Below the pieces are notes generated by a model. It made no database searches. It was not told where the DNA came from and saw only the letters and a list, made by a program, of their open reading frames with translations. DNA of 64,000 nt from an uncultured Bacteroidales bacterium (GTDB taxonomy: Bacteria > Bacteroidota > Bacteroidia > Bacteroidales > Bacteroidaceae). Of the stretch, positions 14,734 to 38,022 are shown piece by piece (position 1 is the stretch's first letter; each line of letters begins with the position of its first letter). Both the position numbers and the translations under genes were made by a program. The stretch is taken from positions 14,747-78,746 of the forward strand of contig CACZCZ010000018.1 of assembly GCA_902779845.1 (NCBI GenBank), read 5' to 3'.

Positions 14734-16338
14734 ATGCAAAAAATCATCATCCTCGATTTCGGATCACAGACCACACAGCTCATCGCCCGTCGTGTGCGTG
14801 AACTGGACACTTTCTGCGAGATCCTGCCCTACAACAAGTTCCCACAGGACGACCCTGATGTCATCGGTGTAATCCTCAGTGGTTCACCCTTCTCGGTCTA
14901 TGACCCCGAGGCCTTCAAGATCGACCTCTCCATGCTCCGTGGCCGCTATCCTATCCTCGGCATCTGCTATGGCGCACAGTTCATCAGCCACACCCTCGGA
15001 GGTCGCGTGGAGCCTGCCCCCAGTCGCGAATACGGTCGTCAGCACCTGACCACCATCGACCTCGGCAACCCCCTCTTTGAGGGTTTCGAGATGGGTTCAC
15101 AGGTGTGGATGAGCCATGGCGACACCATCACCGCCATCCCTGAAGGCTTCCAGTGCATCGCCTCTACCGCATCCGTGAAGTACGCCGCCTACTATTGCCC
15201 TCAGCCCTCAGCTCGTCCCAGCGGGACGCTTGACCCCTCAGCCCTCAGCCCTCAGCCTTCAGCCCTCTGCCCCATCTGGGGTGTTCAGTTCCATCCCGAA
15301 GTCTTCCACAGCACTCAGGGTTCCCTGCTTCTGAAGAACTTCGTTGTGAACATCTGCGGCAGCAGACAGGAGTGGAGTGCAGCCTCCTTCGTAGATACCA
15401 CGGTAGCCGAGCTGAAGCAACAGCTGGGCAATGACCGCGTCATCCTGGGTCTCTCCGGAGGTGTTGACAGCAGCGTTGCCGCCGTGCTCATCAGCCGGGC
15501 CATTGGCAACCGTCTCACCTGTATCTTCGTCGATCATGGCATGCTCCGCAAGAACGAGTTCTCACAGGTCATGGAGGACTACAAAGTGCTCGGCCTGAAT
15601 GTCATCGGCGTCGATGCTTCAGAGAAGTTCTTTGCCGACTTAGCCGGTGTCACAGAACCCGAGCAGAAGCGCAAGATCATCGGTCGCGACTTCGTGGAAG
15701 TCTTCAATGCCGAAGCAAAGAAAATTACAGACGCACGCTGGCTGGCTCAGGGCACTATCTACCCCGACCGTATCGAATCCCTCAACATCACAGGCAAGGT
15801 CATCAAGAGCCATCACAATGTCGGCGGCCTGCCCAAAGAGATGAACTTGCAGCTCTGCGAGCCCCTGAAGTGGTTGTTTAAGGATGAGGTGCGACGCGTT
15901 GGACGTCAGCTTGGTATGCCCGACCACCTCATCAACCGTCATCCCTTCCCCGGTCCCGGTTTGGCCGTCCGCATTCTTGGCGACATCACCCCTGAGCGCG
16001 TTCGCATTCTTCAGGATGCCGACGACATATATATTCGCGCCATGCGCGAATACGTCTGTGAAGACGGCGAGAAACTTTACGACAAAGTGTGGCAGGCCGG
16101 TGCCATCCTCCTTGCCACCGTCCGCAGCGTTGGCGTGATGGGCGATGAGCGCACATACGAGCACCCCGTAGCCCTGCGTGCTGTCACCTCCACCGATGCG
16201 ATGACCGCCGACTGGGCACACCTCCCCTACGACTTTATGGCGCGTGTCAGCACAGACATCATCAACCACGTCCGTGGTGTCAACCGTGTCTGCTACGACA
16301 TCTCCTCCAAGCCGCCAGCCACCATCGAGTGGGAATAA
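14734..16338 (+). CDS. guaA: GMP synthase (glutamine-hydrolysing)
   Basis: GATase (GICYGAQ, VQFHPEV), ATP-PPase (GLSGGVDSS) and a C-terminal dimerisation domain ending in TIEWE. Repeat-derived insert at 15199-15272. Confidence 0.95.
15199..15272. repeat. Repeat-derived in-frame insert in guaA
   Basis: GCTCGTCCCAGCGGGACGCTTGACCCCTCA (15211-15240) flanked by (CCCTCAG)n. Encodes [25 protein letters not shown] just before the conserved [10 protein letters not shown]. Confidence 0.9.
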
Positions 16339-23608: not shown

Positions 23609-24208
23609 TCAATCATAGATAATGTGCGGATTCCTTTCCGCCGGTGTCTTCCAGTCTATGTTGAAGCCATATCGCAAGATATCCTTCTTCAGCCCCCATA
23701 TACTATGGCAAATGCCTATCATCCAGTTCTCGGGTATGAAGACCATGTCCATGAAGGAATCTATGCTTTTTTCAAGGCTGGGTGAAAGGAATGGGCTCAA
23801 TCTGTCATCCTTTCCCTCCTCCCGATGTGCATTCCACAAGTCATAAGCCCGCATGATTTGCCTACCTAAGATCTCCTCTTTCTCAGGATAGTCAATCTCG
23901 ATTCTCGTCCGCGGGTCTATCAGCATGGCGAGCCTCTTCAAGAGCGAACCGATTCGTTCCACCTCTTTCTGGAAAGGCTGTACCTTCTTCTTTTCAGACC
24001 ACATTGACCTTGGGTCAGCCAGCGGCAACACGATGTCCGGCTCCGTTCCAATCCAATACACCGATGCCTCGCAGTTACCCACAACGCTACACATCAGCCC
24101 TAGCCGCCTCATCTCAGGATCAAAGAAGCCGCTCAGGTCCTTTATCCTAATGAACGCGCTGATGCCCAGCTCCTTCATCTTTGCTTCTGTTAGTACGATG
24201 TGTTCCAT
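23609..24208 (-). CDS. Hypothetical protein (199 aa), orphan
   Basis: Clean ORF in the island. Its promoter (24321-24355) has the same palindrome-plus-box architecture as the WYL and DUF1566-like genes. No motif recognised. Confidence 0.6.
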   Translation of the reverse strand: MEHIVLTEAKMKELGISAFIRIKDLSGFFDPEMRRLGLMCSVVGNCEASVYWIGTEPDIVLPLADPRSMWSEKKKVQPFQKEVERIGSLLKRLAMLIDPRTRIEIDYPEKEEILGRQIMRAYDLWNAHREEGKDDRLSPFLSPSLEKSIDSFMDMVFIPENWMIGICHSIWGLKKDILRYGFNIDWKTPAERNPHIIYD

Positions 24209-24375: not shown

Positions 24376-24921
24376 TTATAGCTGCAATGGTTCCGTGAGA
24401 TCACCTATAGGATGATAATTAAAACCCAAATAACGATTATACCACTCTTCTGGTTTCCAGCCATCTAAAGATACCCTCTCTCCCGTTTCATTATCCACGA
24501 TTATCGGAGTAAAAACTTTAATCGAATTGTATATTCTTACATTACCAGTTGCTGTTCTCTCCACTCTTCCAACGTCATAAAGCGAACATATGTTATATTT
24601 TGCATCATCTTTTGTATAGATGCGAAATAAAGGGCCATGTTTACTGGGCACATCAACAATTTCTCCATCTATAGGTTTTAGTAATTCAGAGAAAGGAAAC
24701 GGAGACTTTTCATCTTGTCCAAGTTCATGATTGTGAACGACCTCTATGAGATCTGTAAAACCACTACGATTCTTCTTCCCAAATAATGGTAACACAAGTA
24801 GTACTTGTTGCGGATTATTAACACTAGCCACACATACCTTTAGATATCTGTCTAACTGTTCTTCGAAGGATTTCTTTTTGAATGGTACAGTCTCCCAGTT
24901 TGTTAATAAATACTTAGCCAT
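24376..24921 (-). CDS. Hypothetical protein (181 aa), third gene of the retron operon
   Basis: The ATG lies 7 nt after the stop of the 275-aa gene, with the same strand and AT-rich composition. No motif recognised. Confidence 0.7.
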   Translation of the reverse strand: MAKYLLTNWETVPFKKKSFEEQLDRYLKVCVASVNNPQQVLLVLPLFGKKNRSGFTDLIEVVHNHELGQDEKSPFPFSELLKPIDGEIVDVPSKHGPLFRIYTKDDAKYNICSLYDVGRVERTATGNVRIYNSIKVFTPIIVDNETGERVSLDGWKPEEWYNRYLGFNYHPIGDLTEPLQL

Positions 24922-24928
24922 ATTATTT

Positions 24929-25756
24929 TTAAATTTTAGACAATAATTCTGTATTTATTGTGTTCGCCATATCCTTAATTGCATCTACCACTTCTCCGAA
25001 TGGTTCTCTACGACGCCAAATTTGACGACGATATTTCCAATATGCAGATTTATCAAGGTTGTTAAATCGCAAAAGTAAGTCATTATTGTCTTTGATACCA
25101 TTCCAATATACTTCCCCTTCCTTGGTTAACGGAAGTTTCATAGCTAATAGTTTTGCCTTAAAGTCTTCTAAGTTCTTTGTTTCATCCAAACTTCTATGGC
25201 TTTGTTCGTTTCTTACTTCTCGCGCAAAATCCAAAACCTCAATTTGTCTTTTATTCATCTTACCTGAAAATGCAGACAATTTGGCTGCCAATGAAAGACC
25301 TTTTATAGAATCTATTTTCTCTATATTTGTCCATTTTGCATTATCGTTAATATATCTGATGACGTCTTCAATAGATTCAAACCTGTTCATGTAGAAATAA
25401 TTAAGCAAATGCTCTACTTGAAGCATTGCATACCTACAAAACTCTGAAAAGTCAATTTTATGGGACCGAACTCCCATCCGATACCTTAGCATTTCTCGAT
25501 AATCAGAAACTAGTTGCTCTCTGACATAATCTTCTTTAATAAAAGAATAGTCAATATCTGGAGTTGCACTATCTAATTTATAGTCCAGCCCCAGATATTT
25601 CTCGATGTCAGCGATTTTACGATTACTTGAAGAGTCATAGGTCGGCACATCTAACAACTCTCGTAGTCCTTTTACAAAATCGTCATTGCCAGGTTCATCA
25701 ATGAGGCGCTTGATGAACTGCAGGAGCTTAATTAATTGTTCTTTATTTTGTGCCAT
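24929..25756 (-). CDS. HEPN-like protein (Rx4H motif RNEQSH), putative retron effector
   Basis: The ATG lies 1 nt after the RT stop. FAREVRNEQSHRS (R182-H187, nt 25196-25213) fits the R[NHD]xxxH HEPN RNase motif. The protein looks predominantly helical. Confidence 0.6.
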   Translation of the reverse strand: MAQNKEQLIKLLQFIKRLIDEPGNDDFVKGLRELLDVPTYDSSSNRKIADIEKYLGLDYKLDSATPDIDYSFIKEDYVREQLVSDYREMLRYRMGVRSHKIDFSEFCRYAMLQVEHLLNYFYMNRFESIEDVIRYINDNAKWTNIEKIDSIKGLSLAAKLSAFSGKMNKRQIEVLDFAREVRNEQSHRSLDETKNLEDFKAKLLAMKLPLTKEGEVYWNGIKDNNDLLLRFNNLDKSAYWKYRRQIWRRREPFGEVVDAIKDMANTINTELLSKI

Positions 25757-25757
25757 A

Positions 25758-27179
25758 TTATAAATAGCTCAAATCAAAATTTGTTTCACAAAGTTTAGCA
25801 AGTATTTCATCCAGCGTCATCGAGGAATGTTTTTTCTTCTTTACATCGACGTCTTTACCAAATGGTCTATGAACGAAATAGAATCTCTCTTTCTGTTGAT
25901 TCTCGCAAAGAGATATTACCAGGTTTGTAAACTCCAATTTTTCAGAATTCTTGCTGATTGTTGCAACTTGTTTCTCACCATCTATCAAGAAGGAAGCGTA
26001 CTTTTTTCCGTTCTTCGATAGTTTCATTTCTACTTTTGTTCCAATTCTTTTCTCAAAATCGGTAATTCTCTGAGTGTCCAAGTACTTGATGGCTGTCTCG
26101 GAATTGCCATATAAAGGAACATCCATAAGTACATTGTATAGCTTCCTCAACTTTACATATGTGGAGTCATCCTCACCCTTGACCATTTTAAGATAATCCA
26201 ACTTTCCTGCTATCACGTTTTCCAAATGCGGAGCCCCCTTTTTAATGTGTCCTTTTTCCAGTTGGTAATGAACAATGAAACGCTGATAGGCTGTTGTCAA
26301 ACCATACTTTTGCCATATATAGAGTATATTTCTTATGTCTTCCACATATTTTCGCGTTACATTTACTTTGTCGCTAACAATCAGTCCCGTGACCTCTTGC
26401 CTGCTCCCTTTTTTCTGTAAACGTGTTTTTACTTCATTGACCTGGAAACCTTGCTCTTGAATGATTTTGAACAGGGTCTTCATGAAACGCGAGTCCTTCT
26501 GATAGACATTGTGCATACTGCTAAATGTAATATCATCTGCATAACGAGAATATATTAATCCATAATGTGAAGCCAATTTTGCAAGTTTATAGTCAAGCTT
26601 ATCGCATATTGCATTTGTGAGTAACGGCGAGGTTGGTGCTCCTTGTGGAAGAATATATTTCTCCGAATCTTCATTCACGAGTTTCATGCAGCACAATCCA
26701 GCAATTACACTGGCGAGTTCTGGATTGAAGTTGAAAGGAGGTACTTTCAGTCGTCCCCACACTCTCGCTTGAGGAATGCTTGGGAAGAAATCTTTAAGAT
26801 CCATGTTAAACACATAGTTCTGTGCAATATGCATTTGTGCATTATCAACGACGGACCGGTTCTGAGCAAAACCCATTGCCCACCGAGATGGTTCATAGAT
26901 GGCCTGAAATATGATGTTCAGATATGTCTGAATAGATTTCAAACCATTTACGGGAGCTGATATATGCCTTGCCCCACCGGACTTTTTTGCAATGAAGAAA
27001 TCGTGATATCGTTTGGAATTGGGAATAGAGAAGGGATTACAATAAAAGTTTATCTGCTTCATAGTAAACGGAAAGCCTCTATCGCCCAACTCGTCAGCCT
27101 TAATATCGTTTAGTAAGGCCAACAAATCAGTTTTATCTTTCATGTGCTCAACACGGAGCTTTATCTTTTCTCTATCCAT
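25758..27179 (-). CDS. Retron-type reverse transcriptase with a ~125-aa C-terminal extension
   Basis: FFIAKKSGGARHISAP; NAQMH (26829-26843); MDLKDFFPSI; LPQGAPTSPLLTNAICDKLD; YADD (26532-26543); RQEVTGLIV (VTG at 26385-26393). Collinear with the Ec86 RT as I remember it. Confidence 0.9.
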   Translation of the reverse strand: MDREKIKLRVEHMKDKTDLLALLNDIKADELGDRGFPFTMKQINFYCNPFSIPNSKRYHDFFIAKKSGGARHISAPVNGLKSIQTYLNIIFQAIYEPSRWAMGFAQNRSVVDNAQMHIAQNYVFNMDLKDFFPSIPQARVWGRLKVPPFNFNPELASVIAGLCCMKLVNEDSEKYILPQGAPTSPLLTNAICDKLDYKLAKLASHYGLIYSRYADDITFSSMHNVYQKDSRFMKTLFKIIQEQGFQVNEVKTRLQKKGSRQEVTGLIVSDKVNVTRKYVEDIRNILYIWQKYGLTTAYQRFIVHYQLEKGHIKKGAPHLENVIAGKLDYLKMVKGEDDSTYVKLRKLYNVLMDVPLYGNSETAIKYLDTQRITDFEKRIGTKVEMKLSKNGKKYASFLIDGEKQVATISKNSEKLEFTNLVISLCENQQKERFYFVHRPFGKDVDVKKKKHSSMTLDEILAKLCETNFDLSYL

Positions 27180-27198
27180 ATAAAAATGAGAGTCTTCA

Positions 27199-27384
27199 AC
27201 AGAACTGCTTTTCTTTGTATATCATAGCACATAACATACTGTTTGTATTTAAATTTGTAAGCCTCGAAGGAAAGCAGAAGTATGCTTTGCACGTCAAGCA
27301 CATATAACAATCTAACATTGTTACCTCAAGCATATGCAAGAGGAATCTACTGAATACGGTAGACAATTTCAAAATCAGTTCTGT
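27199..27384 (-). ncRNA. Candidate retron msr-msd non-coding RNA
   Basis: 14-nt inverted repeat: ACAGAACTGaTTTT (rc of 27371-27384) pairs with AAAAgCAGTTCTGT (rc of 27199-27212), 13 of 14 positions. The 3' arm ends 19 nt before the RT ATG. A G follows the 5' arm directly (27370). Internal hairpins are present, for example TAACAAT-guuag-ATTGTTA and AAAGCA-uacuuc-TGCTTT. Confidence 0.45.
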
Positions 27385-27434
27385 ATCAGACTCTCAAAGA
27401 TCGCTGTTTAACTTTGATTTGGAATGAGGATATA

Positions 27435-28040
27435 TCACCTCGTTTTAACAAGGCGTATAGGTATTGAGAAACCTGAAAAAACAAGAGTAATATCAATGGC
27501 CGTTATACGCAGTGCGCCCTCACCTACACGTCCCATATGTACCGCCTTTTTCTCATTTCCATCCTCCTTATTATTTATCCAGAAATATAAATGCCCAGCT
27601 CCATACATATTTTTATGCACTAGTCTACCAGCTTTTTTGAAACCTGTACTATGGAAATTAATACTATTGCCATTGGGACCTATGAATGTAACACTATACA
27701 AGTCTCCGTATGTGTTTTTTTCCACATGCCTCTCACAAGTCTCAAATAATTCTTTCCACTGTTCTTCTGTTGGAAGATTATAATTTTCTGCTGTCTCATA
27801 TGGCAAGAAGATAACTTTTTTATCTTCCATTTCATAATCAGCCGACCACAACGTTCCACTTGGCAAACCTAGGTCAACATATTCAGTCTTGTTGTCACGA
27901 AGATCGATTGGAATCTCTTCCTCTCGGTCTTTGTAACCATCACGATACCCTTCTTCATACGCTTTTGCGAGCGCATTTGCTATCACTTCGTTTGATTTCT
28001 CTGCTGCATATTGAGCAGCCTTCTCTGTCAGCTCTATCAT
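27435..28040 (-). CDS. DUF1566 / FISUMP-like domain protein, no signal peptide
   Basis: YVDLGLPSGTLWS, LPTEEQWKELF and GPNGNSINF...G..YFW segments match the Bacteroides DUF1566-type family as I recall it. The N-terminus is a helical region rich in A, E and K. Confidence 0.6.
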   Translation of the reverse strand: MIELTEKAAQYAAEKSNEVIANALAKAYEEGYRDGYKDREEEIPIDLRDNKTEYVDLGLPSGTLWSADYEMEDKKVIFLPYETAENYNLPTEEQWKELFETCERHVEKNTYGDLYSVTFIGPNGNSINFHSTGFKKAGRLVHKNMYGAGHLYFWINNKEDGNEKKAVHMGRVGEGALRITAIDITLVFSGFSIPIRLVKTR

Positions 28041-28064: not shown

Positions 28065-28099
28065 CAAAGATATATCCCGTTAGCGAACTCTATGTTCGT
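28065..28099 (-). promoter_or_regulatory. Promoter with operator palindrome (ACGAAC-N5-GTTCGC, 10-nt gap, TATCTTTG)
   Basis: The minus strand reads ACGAACATAGAGTTCGC-taacgggata-TATCTTTG, 25 nt upstream of the ATG at 28040. It overlaps the 3' end of the WYL gene. Confidence 0.6.
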
Positions 28100-29127
28100 A
28101 AACTACCATATTTTTCATTCATAGCAGAAATATGCTTTTCTATTTCGTTCTTGACATCGCCGTCGGACTGTAAGACGATGAGGTCTGCACCGAAAGAGGT
28201 TAGTTCACGGATGAGTTCAAAGTTGTTGATACAGTCCAGCGTGAAGAAGAGGCCGCCTTGGAGTTGGGGATATTCAGCACGCAGTTGCAGATCTTTCTCT
28301 CCTTTGAGGGGAGTGTAGCTGCCATGAATCGGCTTTGTATCGACATAACCTTTCGATGCATCACTCACCCAGCATAGGATATGTTCAACTGGACGATCCT
28401 CGTAGAGTGTAACACCTACGATGTCTTCAAAGCGGTCTGCAAGGTCTTCCGGACATTTCTCATAGTGCTTCTCTGGAAATGGATCCACTGCATTGATTCT
28501 GTCGAGAGCGAAGTGAAGGATCTTCTTGTCGCTGTCAGCAGCACCGAGCAGATACCAACGGTCGTTGTACTGCTTTAACAGGTAGGGATGGAAGTCTATG
28601 CTACGAATAGTCTCATCTGAGAAGGTATGGTAGGACAGCCTGATGACCACCTTATTAGATATATAGTCGAAGAGTGTTCCCAGGAGGTTGGAGTTCTTCA
28701 GGTAGGGATTGTTACTGAAACTTATAATCTGACGGTGGCTCCGCACTTCTGCATCTGCCTTCAGACGGTCCAACCAAGCAAAATGATCCAGACCGTTGAA
28801 CTGACCAATAGTGTTCAGAACTTCATGCAAGAGCAATCTCTCTTCACGACGCATCTCCTGCTTAAAAATAGAGAATGAGTGCTTGTCATACGCAATGCAG
28901 TTCTTGCCATTCTTCACGAATCGAGCAATGGGTGCATTGAAGGGCGCATCTTCAAGCGCATTAATATCTTTCTCTATGCAGCGTTGTCCAACCTCAAGGA
29001 ATCCATCAAACCGCAATCTCTCATTCACGCCATCTGTCAAGTCGTGAATGTCATAATAGTGATAGCGGTCGGACAGCAGTCTATCCAGATGCTTATATCG
29101 AATGAGAGCGTTCTTGTTCGTTGGCAT
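28090..29127 (-). CDS. WYL-domain transcriptional regulator (HTH-WYL-WCX type)
   Basis: N-terminal HTH (ALIRYKHLDRLL...RCIEKDINAL) and WYL motif NDRWYLLG. ATG at 29127 is preferred because the TACCTTTG box at 29145-29152 lies inside the longer ORF. Confidence 0.8.
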   Translation of the reverse strand: MPTNKNALIRYKHLDRLLSDRYHYYDIHDLTDGVNERLRFDGFLEVGQRCIEKDINALEDAPFNAPIARFVKNGKNCIAYDKHSFSIFKQEMRREERLLLHEVLNTIGQFNGLDHFAWLDRLKADAEVRSHRQIISFSNNPYLKNSNLLGTLFDYISNKVVIRLSYHTFSDETIRSIDFHPYLLKQYNDRWYLLGAADSDKKILHFALDRINAVDPFPEKHYEKCPEDLADRFEDIVGVTLYEDRPVEHILCWVSDASKGYVDTKPIHGSYTPLKGEKDLQLRAEYPQLQGGLFFTLDCINNFELIRELTSFGADLIVLQSDGDVKNEIEKHISAMNEKYGSLRT

Positions 29128-29144
29128 AATTTCTGTTTTTGCTG

Positions 29145-29179
29145 CAAAGGTAATTATTGGTTGCGAACGCAATGTTCGC
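29145..29179 (-). promoter_or_regulatory. Promoter with operator palindrome (GCGAAC-N5-GTTCGC, 10-nt gap, TACCTTTG), likely autoregulatory
   Basis: The minus strand reads GCGAACATTGCGTTCGC-aaccaataat-TACCTTTG, 18 nt upstream of the WYL ATG. Confidence 0.6.
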
Positions 29180-29335
29180 ACACCTCAAAAATCCTTTAGA
29201 CAAGTTTTCTGGCCACAAAGATACAACTTATTTTGATTCACTGAGCAAAAAACCTCAAAAAAAAATTTTTCATAAGGCTTGTGAAGCAGAAAAGGAGCGA
29301 TGCCGCTCCTTTTCGTTTCGACTCTATGATGATTA

Positions 29336-29944
29336 TTATTTCTTTGTTCTATCAACAATTACCCAATGGCCACCAAAATCTGCGCCAGCACGACGAATCA
29401 GACTGTCGCGTTTAAGGGTCTCGATGCACCGCTGTATATAACTTGAAGCCTTTCCTGTTTCCTTTACCAACTCAGCTCTGGTTATTTTCGGATTCTTCTT
29501 TATGAGTTCATAAACTATATCTATGGTTGTCTGACCACCTGTCTGACCACCTGTCTGACCACCTGTCTGACCACCTATTTGACCACCTATTTGAGTACTA
29601 TTCACATTATTCCTCTTGAACGTTACTTTCACTCCGCCATAGGCCGACTCAATCTTGGGCATAGGCAATCCAGCACCCTCAAAGCCCTCACGAATTTTCT
29701 TATAGCCACGTCCCCAGGCATCAATGAATCCGGCTTTGAAAAAGGCATTGGCAATATTTCTGTTGCGGGGACGCGAGGCATGTTGTTGAAGCAACGTCTC
29801 TGGAGTAAAGCCAACGGGCAATTCGCCTTCGTTCCATATCTCACAATAGTCATCCCATACACGCATCTGGATGTGAGCTCCCGTGTAGTCTTTATGGATG
29901 ATAGCATTATATAGTATTTCACGCAAAGCCTCCTCAGGTTCCAT
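29336..29944 (-). CDS. Truncated paralogue of the upstream gene (HATPase_c_4-like domain + repeat linker + wHTH); possible gene remnant
   Basis: EALREILYNAIIHKDY starts the HATPase_c_4-like region, and no AlbA_2 N-terminus is present. Similarity seems to continue 5' of the ATG up to an in-frame stop. Contains the GGQIGGQTGGQTGGQTGGQT linker. Confidence 0.55.
   Translation of the reverse strand: MEPEEALREILYNAIIHKDYTGAHIQMRVWDDYCEIWNEGELPVGFTPETLLQQHASRPRNRNIANAFFKAGFIDAWGRGYKKIREGFEGAGLPMPKIESAYGGVKVTFKRNNVNSTQIGGQIGGQTGGQTGGQTGGQTTIDIVYELIKKNPKITRAELVKETGKASSYIQRCIETLKRDSLIRRAGADFGGHWVIVDRTKK
29529..29594. repeat. 12-nt in-frame tandem repeat (GTCTGACCACCT x4 plus 2 variants)
   Basis: Read directly. 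Encodes (GGQT/GGQI)n in the linker of the 202-aa ORF. Confidence 0.9.
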
Positions 29945-29980
29945 TCTGCGAGGAACCGATTATATAATGCTTTCGTCATT

Positions 29981-31600
29981 TCATGACTCTTTCTTTTTCT
30001 TCAAAACCATCCATTCGCCACCGAATGTGCCACCTATTCGCTCAATAACAAGGTTTTCTTTTAGTTCCTTCAGGTCACGCTTGATGGTCTTTTTATCAAC
30101 ATCGAGTTTTTCTGCCATTGTCTCTACGCTGACATGGGAATCAATAGAAATCATGCCAACGATGGCTTGTTGACGCCTTTTACGTTTACTGATAACGAGT
30201 TCTCTTTCAAACGGCTTTAACGAGAGTTCCTCGTCTGTCAGCTCATGGATGGAAGTTGGGGACATTTTGTCCTTGTTGGGGACATTATCGGGTTCTGTTG
30301 GGGACATTTGTCCTTCGTTGGGGACATTTTTACCTTCTGTTGGGGACATTTTCCCTGTCTCTGTGACATTTCCATAGACATTTTCGTCCTGATAGGTGAT
30401 AGAGAAGAGGAACTGGGAGCCACTGTTGATCTCGATTTTATAGTTTGGATAGTAGAGCGGTGCATAGCGTAGGATGTTGCGGGTACCGGAGCCCAAATCC
30501 TCTGCCCAGTTCAGTTCGTGGAACACACGCACTAATAGTGGATTCTTGGTGTAGTTGCTGAGTTGTTGGATGGTCAACTCTCCCTCGGGGATCTCAGGCA
30601 ACAAGCGCGTAGGATTCTTCGTCACAACACGGTCTTTGAACACGTGGAAGAAGCAGGCATAACCGCTACTGAAATCAGTATGAACACACATATTGCCAAC
30701 AATCTCTCGGAATAAGTCCCAACGCAGGTTCTGTCGCTGCATGGTGTTGGCTGGCAGATAGAACTTATCAGGCAGATAACGCTCTACAAAAGCTCCCAAT
30801 TGTTCATAGACCTGAATCAGGTTCTGACGAATGGTGCGACGGTCATCATAGCGGCTGGGGAACAGACTCATATCGTTGTATTGGGCGTATGTGCACATGT
30901 GGAATACGGCCTCGAAGCGGTAACGAGGCATAAACTCTGTGATGGCATCTTCTGTGCCAAAAAGTATCAGTGCCGCATATTTCAGTTGTAGCTTGCTTCC
31001 TTCCTGCTTGGCCAGATGTGCGCTGAGCAACATCTCTTCATTCGTCATCTGCAACCAGGCATGTGAGGGTTGTATTGTTGCCAAGATGTTGCGGCAATAC
31101 TGGAAAGTCTTAACATCCAGCTGTTCCATCGTCAGACCTTCCACGATTCGTTCCTCAAACAGATGTGGATTCTTTCTTTCGAAGATTGACAACAATAGTT
31201 CGGGCTGATCGGTCACATCGATGTCAGCATCATCGTTCCTGTCCCAATAGCGGCCTTTGAAGCGATAGACATACTGACCGCAGGGGATATCGAGTTGCAT
31301 TACAGTCTTGTCATCCATCTCCATGATACGAGGCGTGAAATAAGGGCAAGGAAGAAACAGTTCAGGATTGTTGATGCAGTTGATGATGTCAGCTTTCAAC
31401 TTCTCTGCCTTATCGGGATTCACACCAATAACAGTTCCGTCATTCTGCACTCCTACTAGGATCTGCCCTCCGGTATGGTTCAAGAAAGAACACACCGACT
31501 CATAGAGGGATTCCGAAATTTCCTCCGTACAGGTCTTGTATTCTATCTGAGTTCCTTCGCCCTCAAGTGTCAATGCTATAAATTTATCTATTACTTTCAT
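29981..31600 (-). CDS. AlbA_2 (Schlafen-like) + HATPase_c_4 + wHTH putative DNA-binding protein
   Basis: EGEGTQIEYKT...LNHTGGQILVGV AlbA_2-type N-terminus and a C-terminal KTIKRDLKELKENLVIERIG wHTH. Proteins of this family are often mis-annotated as RecG-like. Confidence 0.75.
   Translation of the reverse strand: MKVIDKFIALTLEGEGTQIEYKTCTEEISESLYESVCSFLNHTGGQILVGVQNDGTVIGVNPDKAEKLKADIINCINNPELFLPCPYFTPRIMEMDDKTVMQLDIPCGQYVYRFKGRYWDRNDDADIDVTDQPELLLSIFERKNPHLFEERIVEGLTMEQLDVKTFQYCRNILATIQPSHAWLQMTNEEMLLSAHLAKQEGSKLQLKYAALILFGTEDAITEFMPRYRFEAVFHMCTYAQYNDMSLFPSRYDDRRTIRQNLIQVYEQLGAFVERYLPDKFYLPANTMQRQNLRWDLFREIVGNMCVHTDFSSGYACFFHVFKDRVVTKNPTRLLPEIPEGELTIQQLSNYTKNPLLVRVFHELNWAEDLGSGTRNILRYAPLYYPNYKIEINSGSQFLFSITYQDENVYGNVTETGKMSPTEGKNVPNEGQMSPTEPDNVPNKDKMSPTSIHELTDEELSLKPFERELVISKRKRRQQAIVGMISIDSHVSVETMAEKLDVDKKTIKRDLKELKENLVIERIGGTFGGEWMVLKKKKES
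30255..30372. repeat. In-frame tandem repeat, GTTGGGGACATT core recurring every 20 or 22 nt (42-nt double unit)
   Basis: Cores at 30255, 30275, 30297, 30317 and 30339, plus a degenerate copy at 30363. Encodes KMSPTEGKNVPNEG / QMSPTEPDNVPNKD / KMSPTS. Confidence 0.9.
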
Positions 31601-31694
31601 AATGCTCTAATTGTTGTCTAATGATTTCTTTGATCTGCTCTCGTAAGAACTGAGGCTTCATGACTTCCAGGTTCTCGCCCAAGTGAAGGGGGAG

Positions 31695-32141
31695 TTAGTG
31701 TAGATGCCGCGCTATCTCCTTGCCCTTCTCCGTGGCCAGGTATTTCGGATTCGGCTTGATGCCCACGCGCCCCAGGTCCAGACGGTCGGCATCGAAGCAG
31801 GCATCGATGGTGGCATTGCCGGTCATGTGGGCCGTGGTGTGCAGGCGACAGGCGGTCTTCAGCAGCTCTATCTCCTCGTCTGACACCTCCGCCAGCAGGG
31901 TTGTGCGGATGGTGTCTATGAACTTGGCCGCGCGCGGTCCGTGTTCCAGGTCGCGGCCGTCATTCCTTCGGCAGCTGTCATGGAGATAGGCGAAGAGACC
32001 CACGACCAGCGCGTTCACCTGGGGTGTCAGCAACTTCTGCCCATTCGCATACACCCGGTCCCAATGCCTTATGCCATGCGTGGACCCCAACTCCCATCGG
32101 GCATCCACATAGCTCCTTACGTCAGCAATAATCTTATTCAT
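31695..32141 (-). CDS. HD-domain protein
   Basis: HGIRHWDRV...AYLHDSCRR gives an H...HD pattern. GC-rich, so it is the first core gene to the right of the island. Confidence 0.65.
   Translation of the reverse strand: MNKIIADVRSYVDARWELGSTHGIRHWDRVYANGQKLLTPQVNALVVGLFAYLHDSCRRNDGRDLEHGPRAAKFIDTIRTTLLAEVSDEEIELLKTACRLHTTAHMTGNATIDACFDADRLDLGRVGIKPNPKYLATEKGKEIARHLH

Positions 32142-37946: not shown

Positions 37947-38022
<76 letters not shown>

Follow-up and report, generated by a model that had tools for sequence, protein, structure and literature searches.

The subject of this study is a candidate retron in a 64,000-nucleotide (nt) stretch of DNA, referred to below as the window, which corresponds to positions 14,747 to 78,746 of contig CACZCZ010000018.1 (assembly GCA_902779845.1) from an uncultured Bacteroidales bacterium. 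The host is a Prevotella metagenome-assembled genome (MAG), in agreement with the Bacteroidota origin proposed in an initial annotation of this DNA. Three open reading frames (ORFs) on the minus strand form an operon that encodes a reverse transcriptase (RT) of 473 amino acids (aa), a 275-aa protein and a 181-aa protein (T181), with intergenic gaps of 1 nt and 7 nt. The ORFs, gaps and motif coordinates of the initial annotation were all recovered from the ORF list and by arithmetic from the RT start. The operon lies inside an island of low guanine-plus-cytosine (GC) content at about 23.6-31.7 kilobases (kb), where GC is 35-47%, versus about 57% in the flanks. Its genes are:

25758..27179, minus strand: RT, 473 aa; best PADLOC match RT-Protease_XI (3.9e-103); motifs NAxxH, YADD and VTG
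24929..25756, minus strand: 275-aa HEPN-like protein, predicted effector RNase; RNEQSH at 25196-25213
24376..24921, minus strand: T181, 181 aa, accessory third gene; sub-branch-specific, orphan fold

The reverse transcriptase is type XI-like and lacks a protease

The RT carries the motifs NAQMH (N113, A114, H117; 26829-26843), YADD (Y213-D216; 26532-26543) and VTG (V263-G265; 26385-26393). The presence of these motifs, together with the top ranking of the PADLOC retron models, bears out its earlier classification as a retron-type enzyme. RT-Protease_XI (344 bits) is followed by RT-TIR_XII (1.9e-100, 335 bits), RT-Toprim_I-C (2.1e-95, 319 bits) and RT_IX (9.1e-49), the placement being one by model score alone. 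The Pfam family RVT_1 matches at 2.4e-19, all NCBIfam retron models stay below their own cutoffs for this RT, and models of defence-associated RTs (DRTs) score much more weakly than the retron models (NCBIfam Drt2, 1.5e-09). A search of PDB sequences identified Ec67/Eco2 (6e-40) and Ec86 (2e-37) as the closest solved RTs; the Kva2 RT is the 11th match (2.6e-19).

The match to the RT-Protease_XI model spans positions 29-403 of 510 and extends beyond the RT domain. Among 48 non-redundant relatives, conservation is good up to about residue 340, and NAxxH, YADD and VTG are at least 90% conserved; over the last 130 residues or so, column identity falls to 16-36% and occupancy to 58-91%. The C-terminus is a variable, inconsistently present extension without a conserved domain, and not the extra C-terminal domain of the initial annotation. 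The possibility that it represents a degenerate protease was rejected as unsupported, the C-terminal 152 residues having no protease match in Pfam even at E <= 10; a weak bPH_1 match (0.0083) is non-significant. Judged by its sequence, the enzyme is a retron-type, type XI-like RT without the protease fusion that defines this type.

A predicted msr-msd RNA precedes the RT gene

The 221-nt leader upstream of the RT gene folds at -66.1 kcal/mol, as opposed to -44 +/- 4.2 kcal/mol for shuffled sequences. It contains the following predicted elements:

27184..27399, minus strand: predicted retron non-coding RNA (ncRNA; msr-msd), bounded by the a1/a2 inverted repeat; fold z = -5.25
27371..27396, minus strand: a1 arm of the long-range stem; 26-nt inverted repeat, 85% complementary
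27370, minus strand: candidate branching (priming) guanosine, directly 3' of a1, in a conserved TTTT-G-AA block
27345..27364, minus strand: msr hairpin 1 (GTCTAC...GTAGAT); RNAalifold consensus stem, columns 94-102/147-155
27187..27218, minus strand: conserved A(C/T)AAAGAAAAG block (27208-27218) with invariant A positions, then the a2 arm (27187-27212)

The two arms are separated by 158 nt. A structured leader had been noted previously; the inverted repeat that bounds it proves to be real, beyond chance in relatives, and longer than the 14 base pairs originally given. In 43 of 50 related loci, the 3' arm of the best upstream repeat ends approximately 8-60 nt before the RT start, a position found in 23 of 100 nulls, and in 18 of the 50 the inverted-repeat score exceeds every null. 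An Rfam scan of the 23-33 kb interval at E <= 1 returned zero matches.

Alignment of 38 loci revealed a constant order of elements. A variable a1 arm, often with a conserved TCTTTGA before it, leads into a nearly invariant (C)ATTTT-G-AA block, whose G is present in 36 loci. Then comes hairpin 1, in which seven of the eight pairs stay paired through two-sided changes; this was the only structure that RNAalifold recovered from the raw MAFFT alignment. An AAC-AATG block, a variable region, the conserved A(C/T)AAAGAAAAG block and a variable a2 arm complete the series. The arm sequences vary from locus to locus, yet remain complementary within each. Compensation between a1 and a2 was measured by duplex energy, a procedure that replaced a gapless register test made too crude by bulges (0.53 paired versus 0.46 swapped). 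The mean energy is -23.9 kcal/mol for a1 with its own a2, compared to -9.2 kcal/mol with a2 from unrelated loci, and the own partner ranks best in 30 of the 38 loci. At the outer end of the stem, a conserved TCTTTGA(CA) in a1 faces the terminal TCAAAGA of a2 and pairs with it; sequence is conserved in the outer stem and variable further in. This conserved end is seen in the window (27394-27399) and in loci L005, L014, L020, L023, L029-L031, L035-L039, L047 and L057. The alternative that TCTTTGA at the 5' end of a1 is a Bacteroidetes -7 promoter box (TAnnTTTG) was rejected, because it lacks the TA and forms pairs with the TCAAAGA of a2.

The ncRNA anchors recur upstream of RTs with about 47% identity or more, in 18 of 26 loci with a HEPN-like partner and six of ten loci with a different one (the HisKin loci described below), and vanish upstream of more distant RTs. 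Since they persist whichever effector lies downstream and are lost with distant RTs, the ncRNA belongs to the RT lineage. Overall, the leader behaves like an msr/msd retron ncRNA, and G27370, by its position in the canonical retron layout, would be the branching guanosine.

The 275-aa protein is the usual partner of the RT

A word-indexed search yielded about 199 homologues of the 275-aa protein, and an exhaustive one 492 clusters at 50% identity; the homologues are devoid of any name or domain annotation. Of the 58 loci collected with this protein as the seed, only three lack an RT of this clade directly upstream, and one of the three is truncated by the contig end. Reciprocally, using the RT as the seed gave 80 metagenome loci; in 50 of them a gene is tightly coupled downstream of the RT, and 29 of these genes belong to the 275-aa superfamily. 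This superfamily is the commonest downstream partner of the RT clade. Divergent branches missed by the family profile retain the D...M...R and F-x-x-F-C...Q-x-E...N-Y blocks along with an R-N-x-x-(x)-H-R core, and hhalign relates them to the family with probabilities of 99.4% and 97.2%. Some loci comprise RT and partner without a same-strand third gene, showing that the pair can stand alone. The conserved unit consists of the RT, the ncRNA and the 275-aa protein, with a WYL gene upstream. It is not the three-gene set that had been put forward initially: a survey of gene neighbourhoods found the RT and the 275-aa protein kept across the clade, with the 181-aa gene limited to the nearest sub-branch. 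Missing from the initial list of components was the WYL regulator conserved upstream.

As anticipated from the sequence, neither the 275-aa nor the 181-aa protein matches a known effector model, with zero matches in Pfam, PADLOC, NCBIfam and PHROGs. Pfam also found no domains in the fusion partners of longer 275-aa family members. Searching 50,697 phage genomes with both proteins (tblastn) produced nothing meaningful, and of the 2.9 million contigs of IMG/VR only two carry the 275-aa family, while the 181-aa family is on none. The idea of a typical phage or prophage cargo was rejected on account of this near-absence. P0101, a homologue of the 275-aa protein, carries the label 'Caudoviricetes sp.' in one source.

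Other members of the RT clade have different downstream partners. The PF22561 'HisKin-conflict' family (1.5e-53) follows 11 type XI-like-clade RTs (L063, L069, L071, L081-L083, L093, L097, L099, L100 and L106), and the ncRNA anchors are kept in six of the ten such loci having enough upstream sequence. This protein looks like another uncharacterised retron effector. A UPF0227 alpha/beta-hydrolase (2.5e-9) follows more distant RTs (L117-L119 and L129), and a protein of approximately 230 aa without an assigned family follows RTs of 573-856 aa (L088, L105, L109, L111 and L134). Swapping of effectors within retrons has been described (Mestre 2020, PMC7736814).

Evidence for a possible HEPN fold

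Residues R182, N183, S186 and H187 are invariant in 38 homologues of the 275-aa protein down to 35% identity. The motif that they form (R182-N-E-Q-S-H187) fits the Rx4-6H signature of HEPN RNases, and the divergent branches keep RNxxH or RNxxxH. The Rx4H assignment of the initial annotation is upheld both by this invariance and by matches to HEPN-type folds. An AlphaFold2 (AF2) model of the protein is all-helical (predicted local distance difference test, pLDDT, 86.3; predicted template-modelling score, pTM, 0.73), and its top Foldseek matches in the PDB, weak ones, are MtlR (E 0.034, probability 0.99), the Gifsy-1 HEPN nuclease HepS and YggD. In 22 of the 38 members, sub-threshold matches to DUF4145 cover the motif helix; a few match HEPN_Swt1 (2.4e-4, in two of the 38), RiboL-PSP, Apea, pEK499_p136, Abi_C or LA2681, again below threshold. 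DUF4145 and MtlR belong to the HEPN clan (Pfam; Anantharaman et al. 2013). A 512-aa homologue, P0273, is a tandem duplicate of the 275-aa module in which the motif is lost from copy one (CNDKSN) and retained in copy two (RNYRAH). This arrangement fits a composite active site formed by a dimer, as in pseudo-dimeric HEPN proteins. On these grounds we consider it probable, with some reserve, that the 275-aa protein is a HEPN-like RNase.

A third gene confined to the closest sub-branch

Just 30 homologues of T181 were found, none below 52% identity. In every context examined its gene comes directly after the RT-275-aa pair, with gaps of 5-22 nt, the most divergent members included. Linked in this way, the third gene is restricted to the closest sub-branch. 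T181 diverges in step with its neighbours, the values relative to the window being 55-72% for T181, 61-70% for the 275-aa protein and 73-78% for the RT. The AF2 model (pLDDT 90.2) gave only noise in a Foldseek search of the PDB. Against a viral structure library (BFVD), the 12 best matches are uncharacterised proteins of crAss-like phages (E 1.4e-6 to 8e-3, template-modelling score (TM) up to 0.58), exemplified by A0A7M1S230 (E 1.4e-6, TM 0.57). The structural check suggested in the initial annotation returned HEPN-type folds, albeit weakly, for the 275-aa protein and viral relatives without a PDB match for T181. At the sequence level, no similarity of T181 to phages was detected in the 50,697 phage genomes or in IMG/VR. 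Phage proteins of the DUF669 family occur lower in the BFVD list, at E of about 0.1. Separately, genes for PLDc_2, DnaB_C and Bro-N proteins lie near the 181-aa gene in L139/L140 and L141, a hint that the island is surrounded by a mobile or phage-derived element.

Upstream genes and the surrounding island

Two further genes precede the ncRNA:

28090..29181, minus strand: WYL-domain protein, 363 aa; Pfam WYL PF13280 3.3e-12; PADLOC WYL 3.8e-18
27435..28040, minus strand: U201, 201 aa, between WYL and the ncRNA; weak FISUMP-domain match (4.4e-4), below cutoff

A WYL gene is found upstream, on the same strand, in nearly all of the 58 loci seeded with the 275-aa protein, its sequence being mosaic between strains (30-73% identity). 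The protein probably regulates transcription, either of the island or of the operon. Regulation of defence islands by WYL proteins is established (PMC9122601), and the BrxR/CapW-type members likewise place a WYL-domain protein at the head of a defence gene cluster; the resemblance is one of domain and position only. All loci with the 181-aa gene also have U201 (43-99% identity), placed between WYL and the ncRNA. Its place is taken in other branches by an unrelated protein of about 200 aa, by further defence genes (PDC-M16A, 1e-205) or by nothing. U201 may be an additional retron component, its membership being uncertain.

Outside the sub-branch, the third position is filled by a NERD-UvrD helicase, a radical-SAM protein, an ABC-type ATPase, a PLD-like protein or others, or has no same-strand gene. 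Neighbours in relatives match defence models, namely NERD-UvrD, PDC-M16A, PtuA/AriA-like and PLD. The whole looks like a WYL-headed defence island with the retron core as its stable resident.

A near-identical locus exists in the Prevotella sp. MAG SIG144 (contig SUYG01000053.1, locus L010), with 98.8-100% identity over the operon. The retron core and both flanks are kept at 93-99%; upstream of the 201-aa gene, other genes are substituted (28072-31691 in the window, 926-4860 in L010). The replaced segment of the window carries the WYL gene, a HATPase_c_4/HTH (helix-turn-helix) gene and an AlbA_2 gene, and the L010 substitute includes a distant WYL protein of 30% identity. The upstream module is swapped at the strain level between the two. 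Neither a tRNA gene nor an integrase was found at the island borders, the sole tRNA being at 37947.

Other ORFs of the region, all on the minus strand, can be summarised briefly. Inside the low-GC island, 29981-31600 encodes a 539-aa protein combining Schlafen/AlbA_2, HATPase_c_4 and a DeoR-type HTH. It is followed at 29336-29944 by a 202-aa paralogue-like fragment with HATPase_c_4, HTH and a GGQ(I/T) repeat GGQIGGQTGGQTGGQTGGQT. At the island border, 31695-32141 encodes a 148-aa protein with weak matches to HD-domain phosphohydrolases; as it is 95% conserved in L010, it probably belongs to the core-genome flank. Directly downstream of the operon, the 199-aa ORF at 23609-24208 has no family match, is common only to the near-identical MAG contig (94%) and is not conserved beside the retron in other loci.

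Comparison with described retrons

The initial annotation held that no known retron effector class is of the Rx4H/HEPN kind. This does not stand: HEPN proteins, accompanied by winged-helix proteins, were predicted in type IX retrons (Mestre 2020, PMC7736814), and their activity has been shown experimentally. In three preprints of July 2026 (among them 10.64898/2026.07.14.737667 and 10.64898/2026.07.14.738597), multicopy single-stranded DNA (msDNA) of type IX cages a HEPN RNase; a phage nuclease cuts the msDNA, and the freed HEPN protein cleaves tRNA or rRNA. Type IX systems such as Retron-Kva2 and Retron-Yin1 thus combine an RT, an ncRNA and a HEPN effector, much as predicted for the window. 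The differences are several. The window RT lies far from the type IX clade (clade 7) by PADLOC score, 9.1e-49 for RT_IX versus 3.9e-103 for type XI. In type IX the HEPN and winged-helix/KH-HTH genes are upstream of msr-msd-RT, whereas here the partner is downstream and the operon has no winged-helix gene. The type IX HEPN protein is without the canonical Rx4-6H histidine (PMC7736814), which the 275-aa protein possesses. Sequence similarity between the two was not detected in PADLOC or in the PDB sequence search. Because RT clade, gene order, the absent winged-helix partner and the canonical Rx4H all differ, the window locus is not type IX.

Canonical type XI, in which the RT is fused to a trypsin-like protease (Mestre 2020), provides the closest RT model. 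The window RT lacks the protease domain, its match stopping at model position 403 of 510, and has a separate HEPN-like gene instead. The account of Mestre 2020 that is cited in Toro 2026 (10.64898/2026.05.14.725207) gives type XI retrons no recognised ncRNA. Ec67/Eco2, a type I-C RT-Toprim fusion, has the closest solved RT and falls in the same RT super-clade (clade 8 of Mestre 2020, PMC7736814). Its effector is the fused Toprim nuclease, which targets tRNA (PMC12916289), as opposed to the separate HEPN-like protein of the window.

The best counterpart by description is TXI_C2like, a computationally defined, protease-less type XI-like lineage found only in Bacteroidota (Toro, bioRxiv May 2026, 10.64898/2026.05.14.725207). 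It is characterised by WYL neighbours in 37%, a predicted covarying a1/a2 ncRNA with three stem-loops, a variable C-terminal RT extension and, in 26 loci, an accessory cluster, AC006, with no Pfam or structural match. The same survey lists as typeXI an RT from the whole-genome shotgun project (SUYG01) of the near-identical locus. The window locus shares the absence of a protease, the Bacteroidota host, NAxxH and VTG, the WYL neighbour, the upstream a1/a2 ncRNA and the variable C-terminus, all likened by description. From these descriptive features, the window RT lineage appears to be TXI_C2like. The survey treats WYL as an accessory module and makes no mention of HEPN or of the 181-aa protein; compared by description in place of AC006 sequences, AC006 may be the 275-aa family. 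The suggestion of an undescribed subtype is accordingly met halfway: the RT lineage fits one already reported, while the HEPN-like partner and the 181-aa protein are absent from that report.

Proposed mechanism and alternative explanations

The interpretation that we favour on balance is that of a retron defence system of a protease-less type XI-like Bacteroidota lineage, in which msDNA would gate a HEPN RNase and so bring about abortive infection. The mechanism is proposed by analogy with type IX retrons. The RT would copy part of the ncRNA into msDNA, starting from the 2'-OH of G27370, and the RT-msDNA complex would bind the 275-aa protein and hold it inactive until some product of the phage cut, modified or titrated the msDNA. 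Once released, the HEPN dimer would cleave tRNA, rRNA or mRNA, and the infected cell would stop growing. Transcription of the island is probably under the control of the upstream WYL protein, and in the sub-branch T181 may serve as an added subunit or modulator.

A number of observations weigh against this interpretation. The Foldseek matches of the 275-aa protein are weak (E 0.03-1, TM 0.27-0.44), and the top one, MtlR, is not known to be a nuclease. No HEPN family reached its curated Pfam cutoff, the best being DUF4145 with the family consensus (0.0015, 19 bits versus a cutoff of 23.1), and the family profile searched against PDB sequences at E <= 10 returned noise only and no solved HEPN. 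In the window, the msd stem is poorly defined. Lastly, the third position is often filled by other tightly adjacent genes, leaving room for a different division of labour.

Such a division is envisaged if the RT, the ncRNA and the 275-aa protein make up a sensor/adaptor chassis, with the 275-aa protein a non-catalytic HEPN-fold regulator resembling MtlR and the real effector encoded in third position (T181 here; the NERD-UvrD helicase, radical-SAM protein, ABC-type ATPase or PLD protein elsewhere). The identity of the top fold match would suit this scheme, as would the strict linkage of the 181-aa gene in its own sub-branch and the finding that occupants of the third position, although variable, are often tightly adjacent on the same strand (-8 to +28 nt) and in several cases match defence models. 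The invariant R, N, S and H of the 38 sequences and the RN..H core of the divergent branches are, however, hard to explain without catalysis; L012, L017 and L028 have no same-strand third gene, and many third-position genes are complete defence genes (NERD plus UvrD, C3a187 model, 1e-51), as expected of island cargo. We find this scheme unlikely. More speculative still, and given little credence here, is the thought that T181 is a domesticated crAss-like phage protein serving the retron as a phage-sensing or decoy subunit, or that the phage copies are mimics which disarm the retron, the RT-HEPN core being a chassis with a plug-in third position.

The 181-aa gene might instead be independent cargo, for instance of phage origin or a stand-alone, single-gene factor for defence or anti-defence, co-inherited with the sub-branch and standing outside the retron. 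It is absent from most of the clade, numbers 30 homologues as against about 200-490 for the 275-aa family, occupies a site of variable cargo and has phage proteins as its only structural relatives. Still, the 5-22 nt gaps leave no space for a separate promoter, T181 was never found apart from the RT-275-aa pair in the contexts examined, and its divergence (55-72%) parallels that of the 275-aa protein (61-70%). We regard cargo status as possible and somewhat doubtful. The remaining alternative is that the RT makes no msDNA and that the locus is an abortive-infection (Abi)/DRT-like RT system whose upstream structure is merely a leader or attenuator. The lack of an Rfam retron match speaks for it, as does the want of a recognised ncRNA in type XI, in the terms in which Toro 2026 cites Mestre 2020. 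The retron-specific NAxxH and VTG motifs speak against it, the DRT models are far weaker (NCBIfam Drt2, 1.5e-09), and compensating a1/a2 arms with a G at the canonical place amount to a retron signature. Covarying a1/a2 structures were also reported independently for TXI_C2like (10.64898/2026.05.14.725207). A system without msDNA strikes us as highly improbable.

Significance

HEPN effectors in retrons are already known from type IX, and the RT lineage was flagged months earlier (Toro, May 2026). The present analysis adds a likely identity for the partner and its spread, a candidate priming G, conserved RNA blocks, alternative effectors of the clade, and a sub-branch third gene with crAss-like structural relatives.

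To our knowledge, there is no experimental study of retrons from gut Bacteroidota and no known mechanism for type XI-like retrons. If the partner is a HEPN RNase, retrons have recruited HEPN at least twice, in two RT clades and with two gene orders, and the msDNA caging of type IX would become a model that can be tested in a far larger lineage associated with the gut, numbering about 490 clusters at 50% identity. The accessory protein that the 2026 survey calls a "priority unknown", which may be this same partner, would likewise gain a probable identity. A compact RT-ncRNA unit from Bacteroidales could interest builders of retron editors for gut commensals. Finally, should T181 be crAss-derived, it would connect a retron of Bacteroidota directly with the crAss-like phages that dominate in the gut, and would represent a new kind of retron component.

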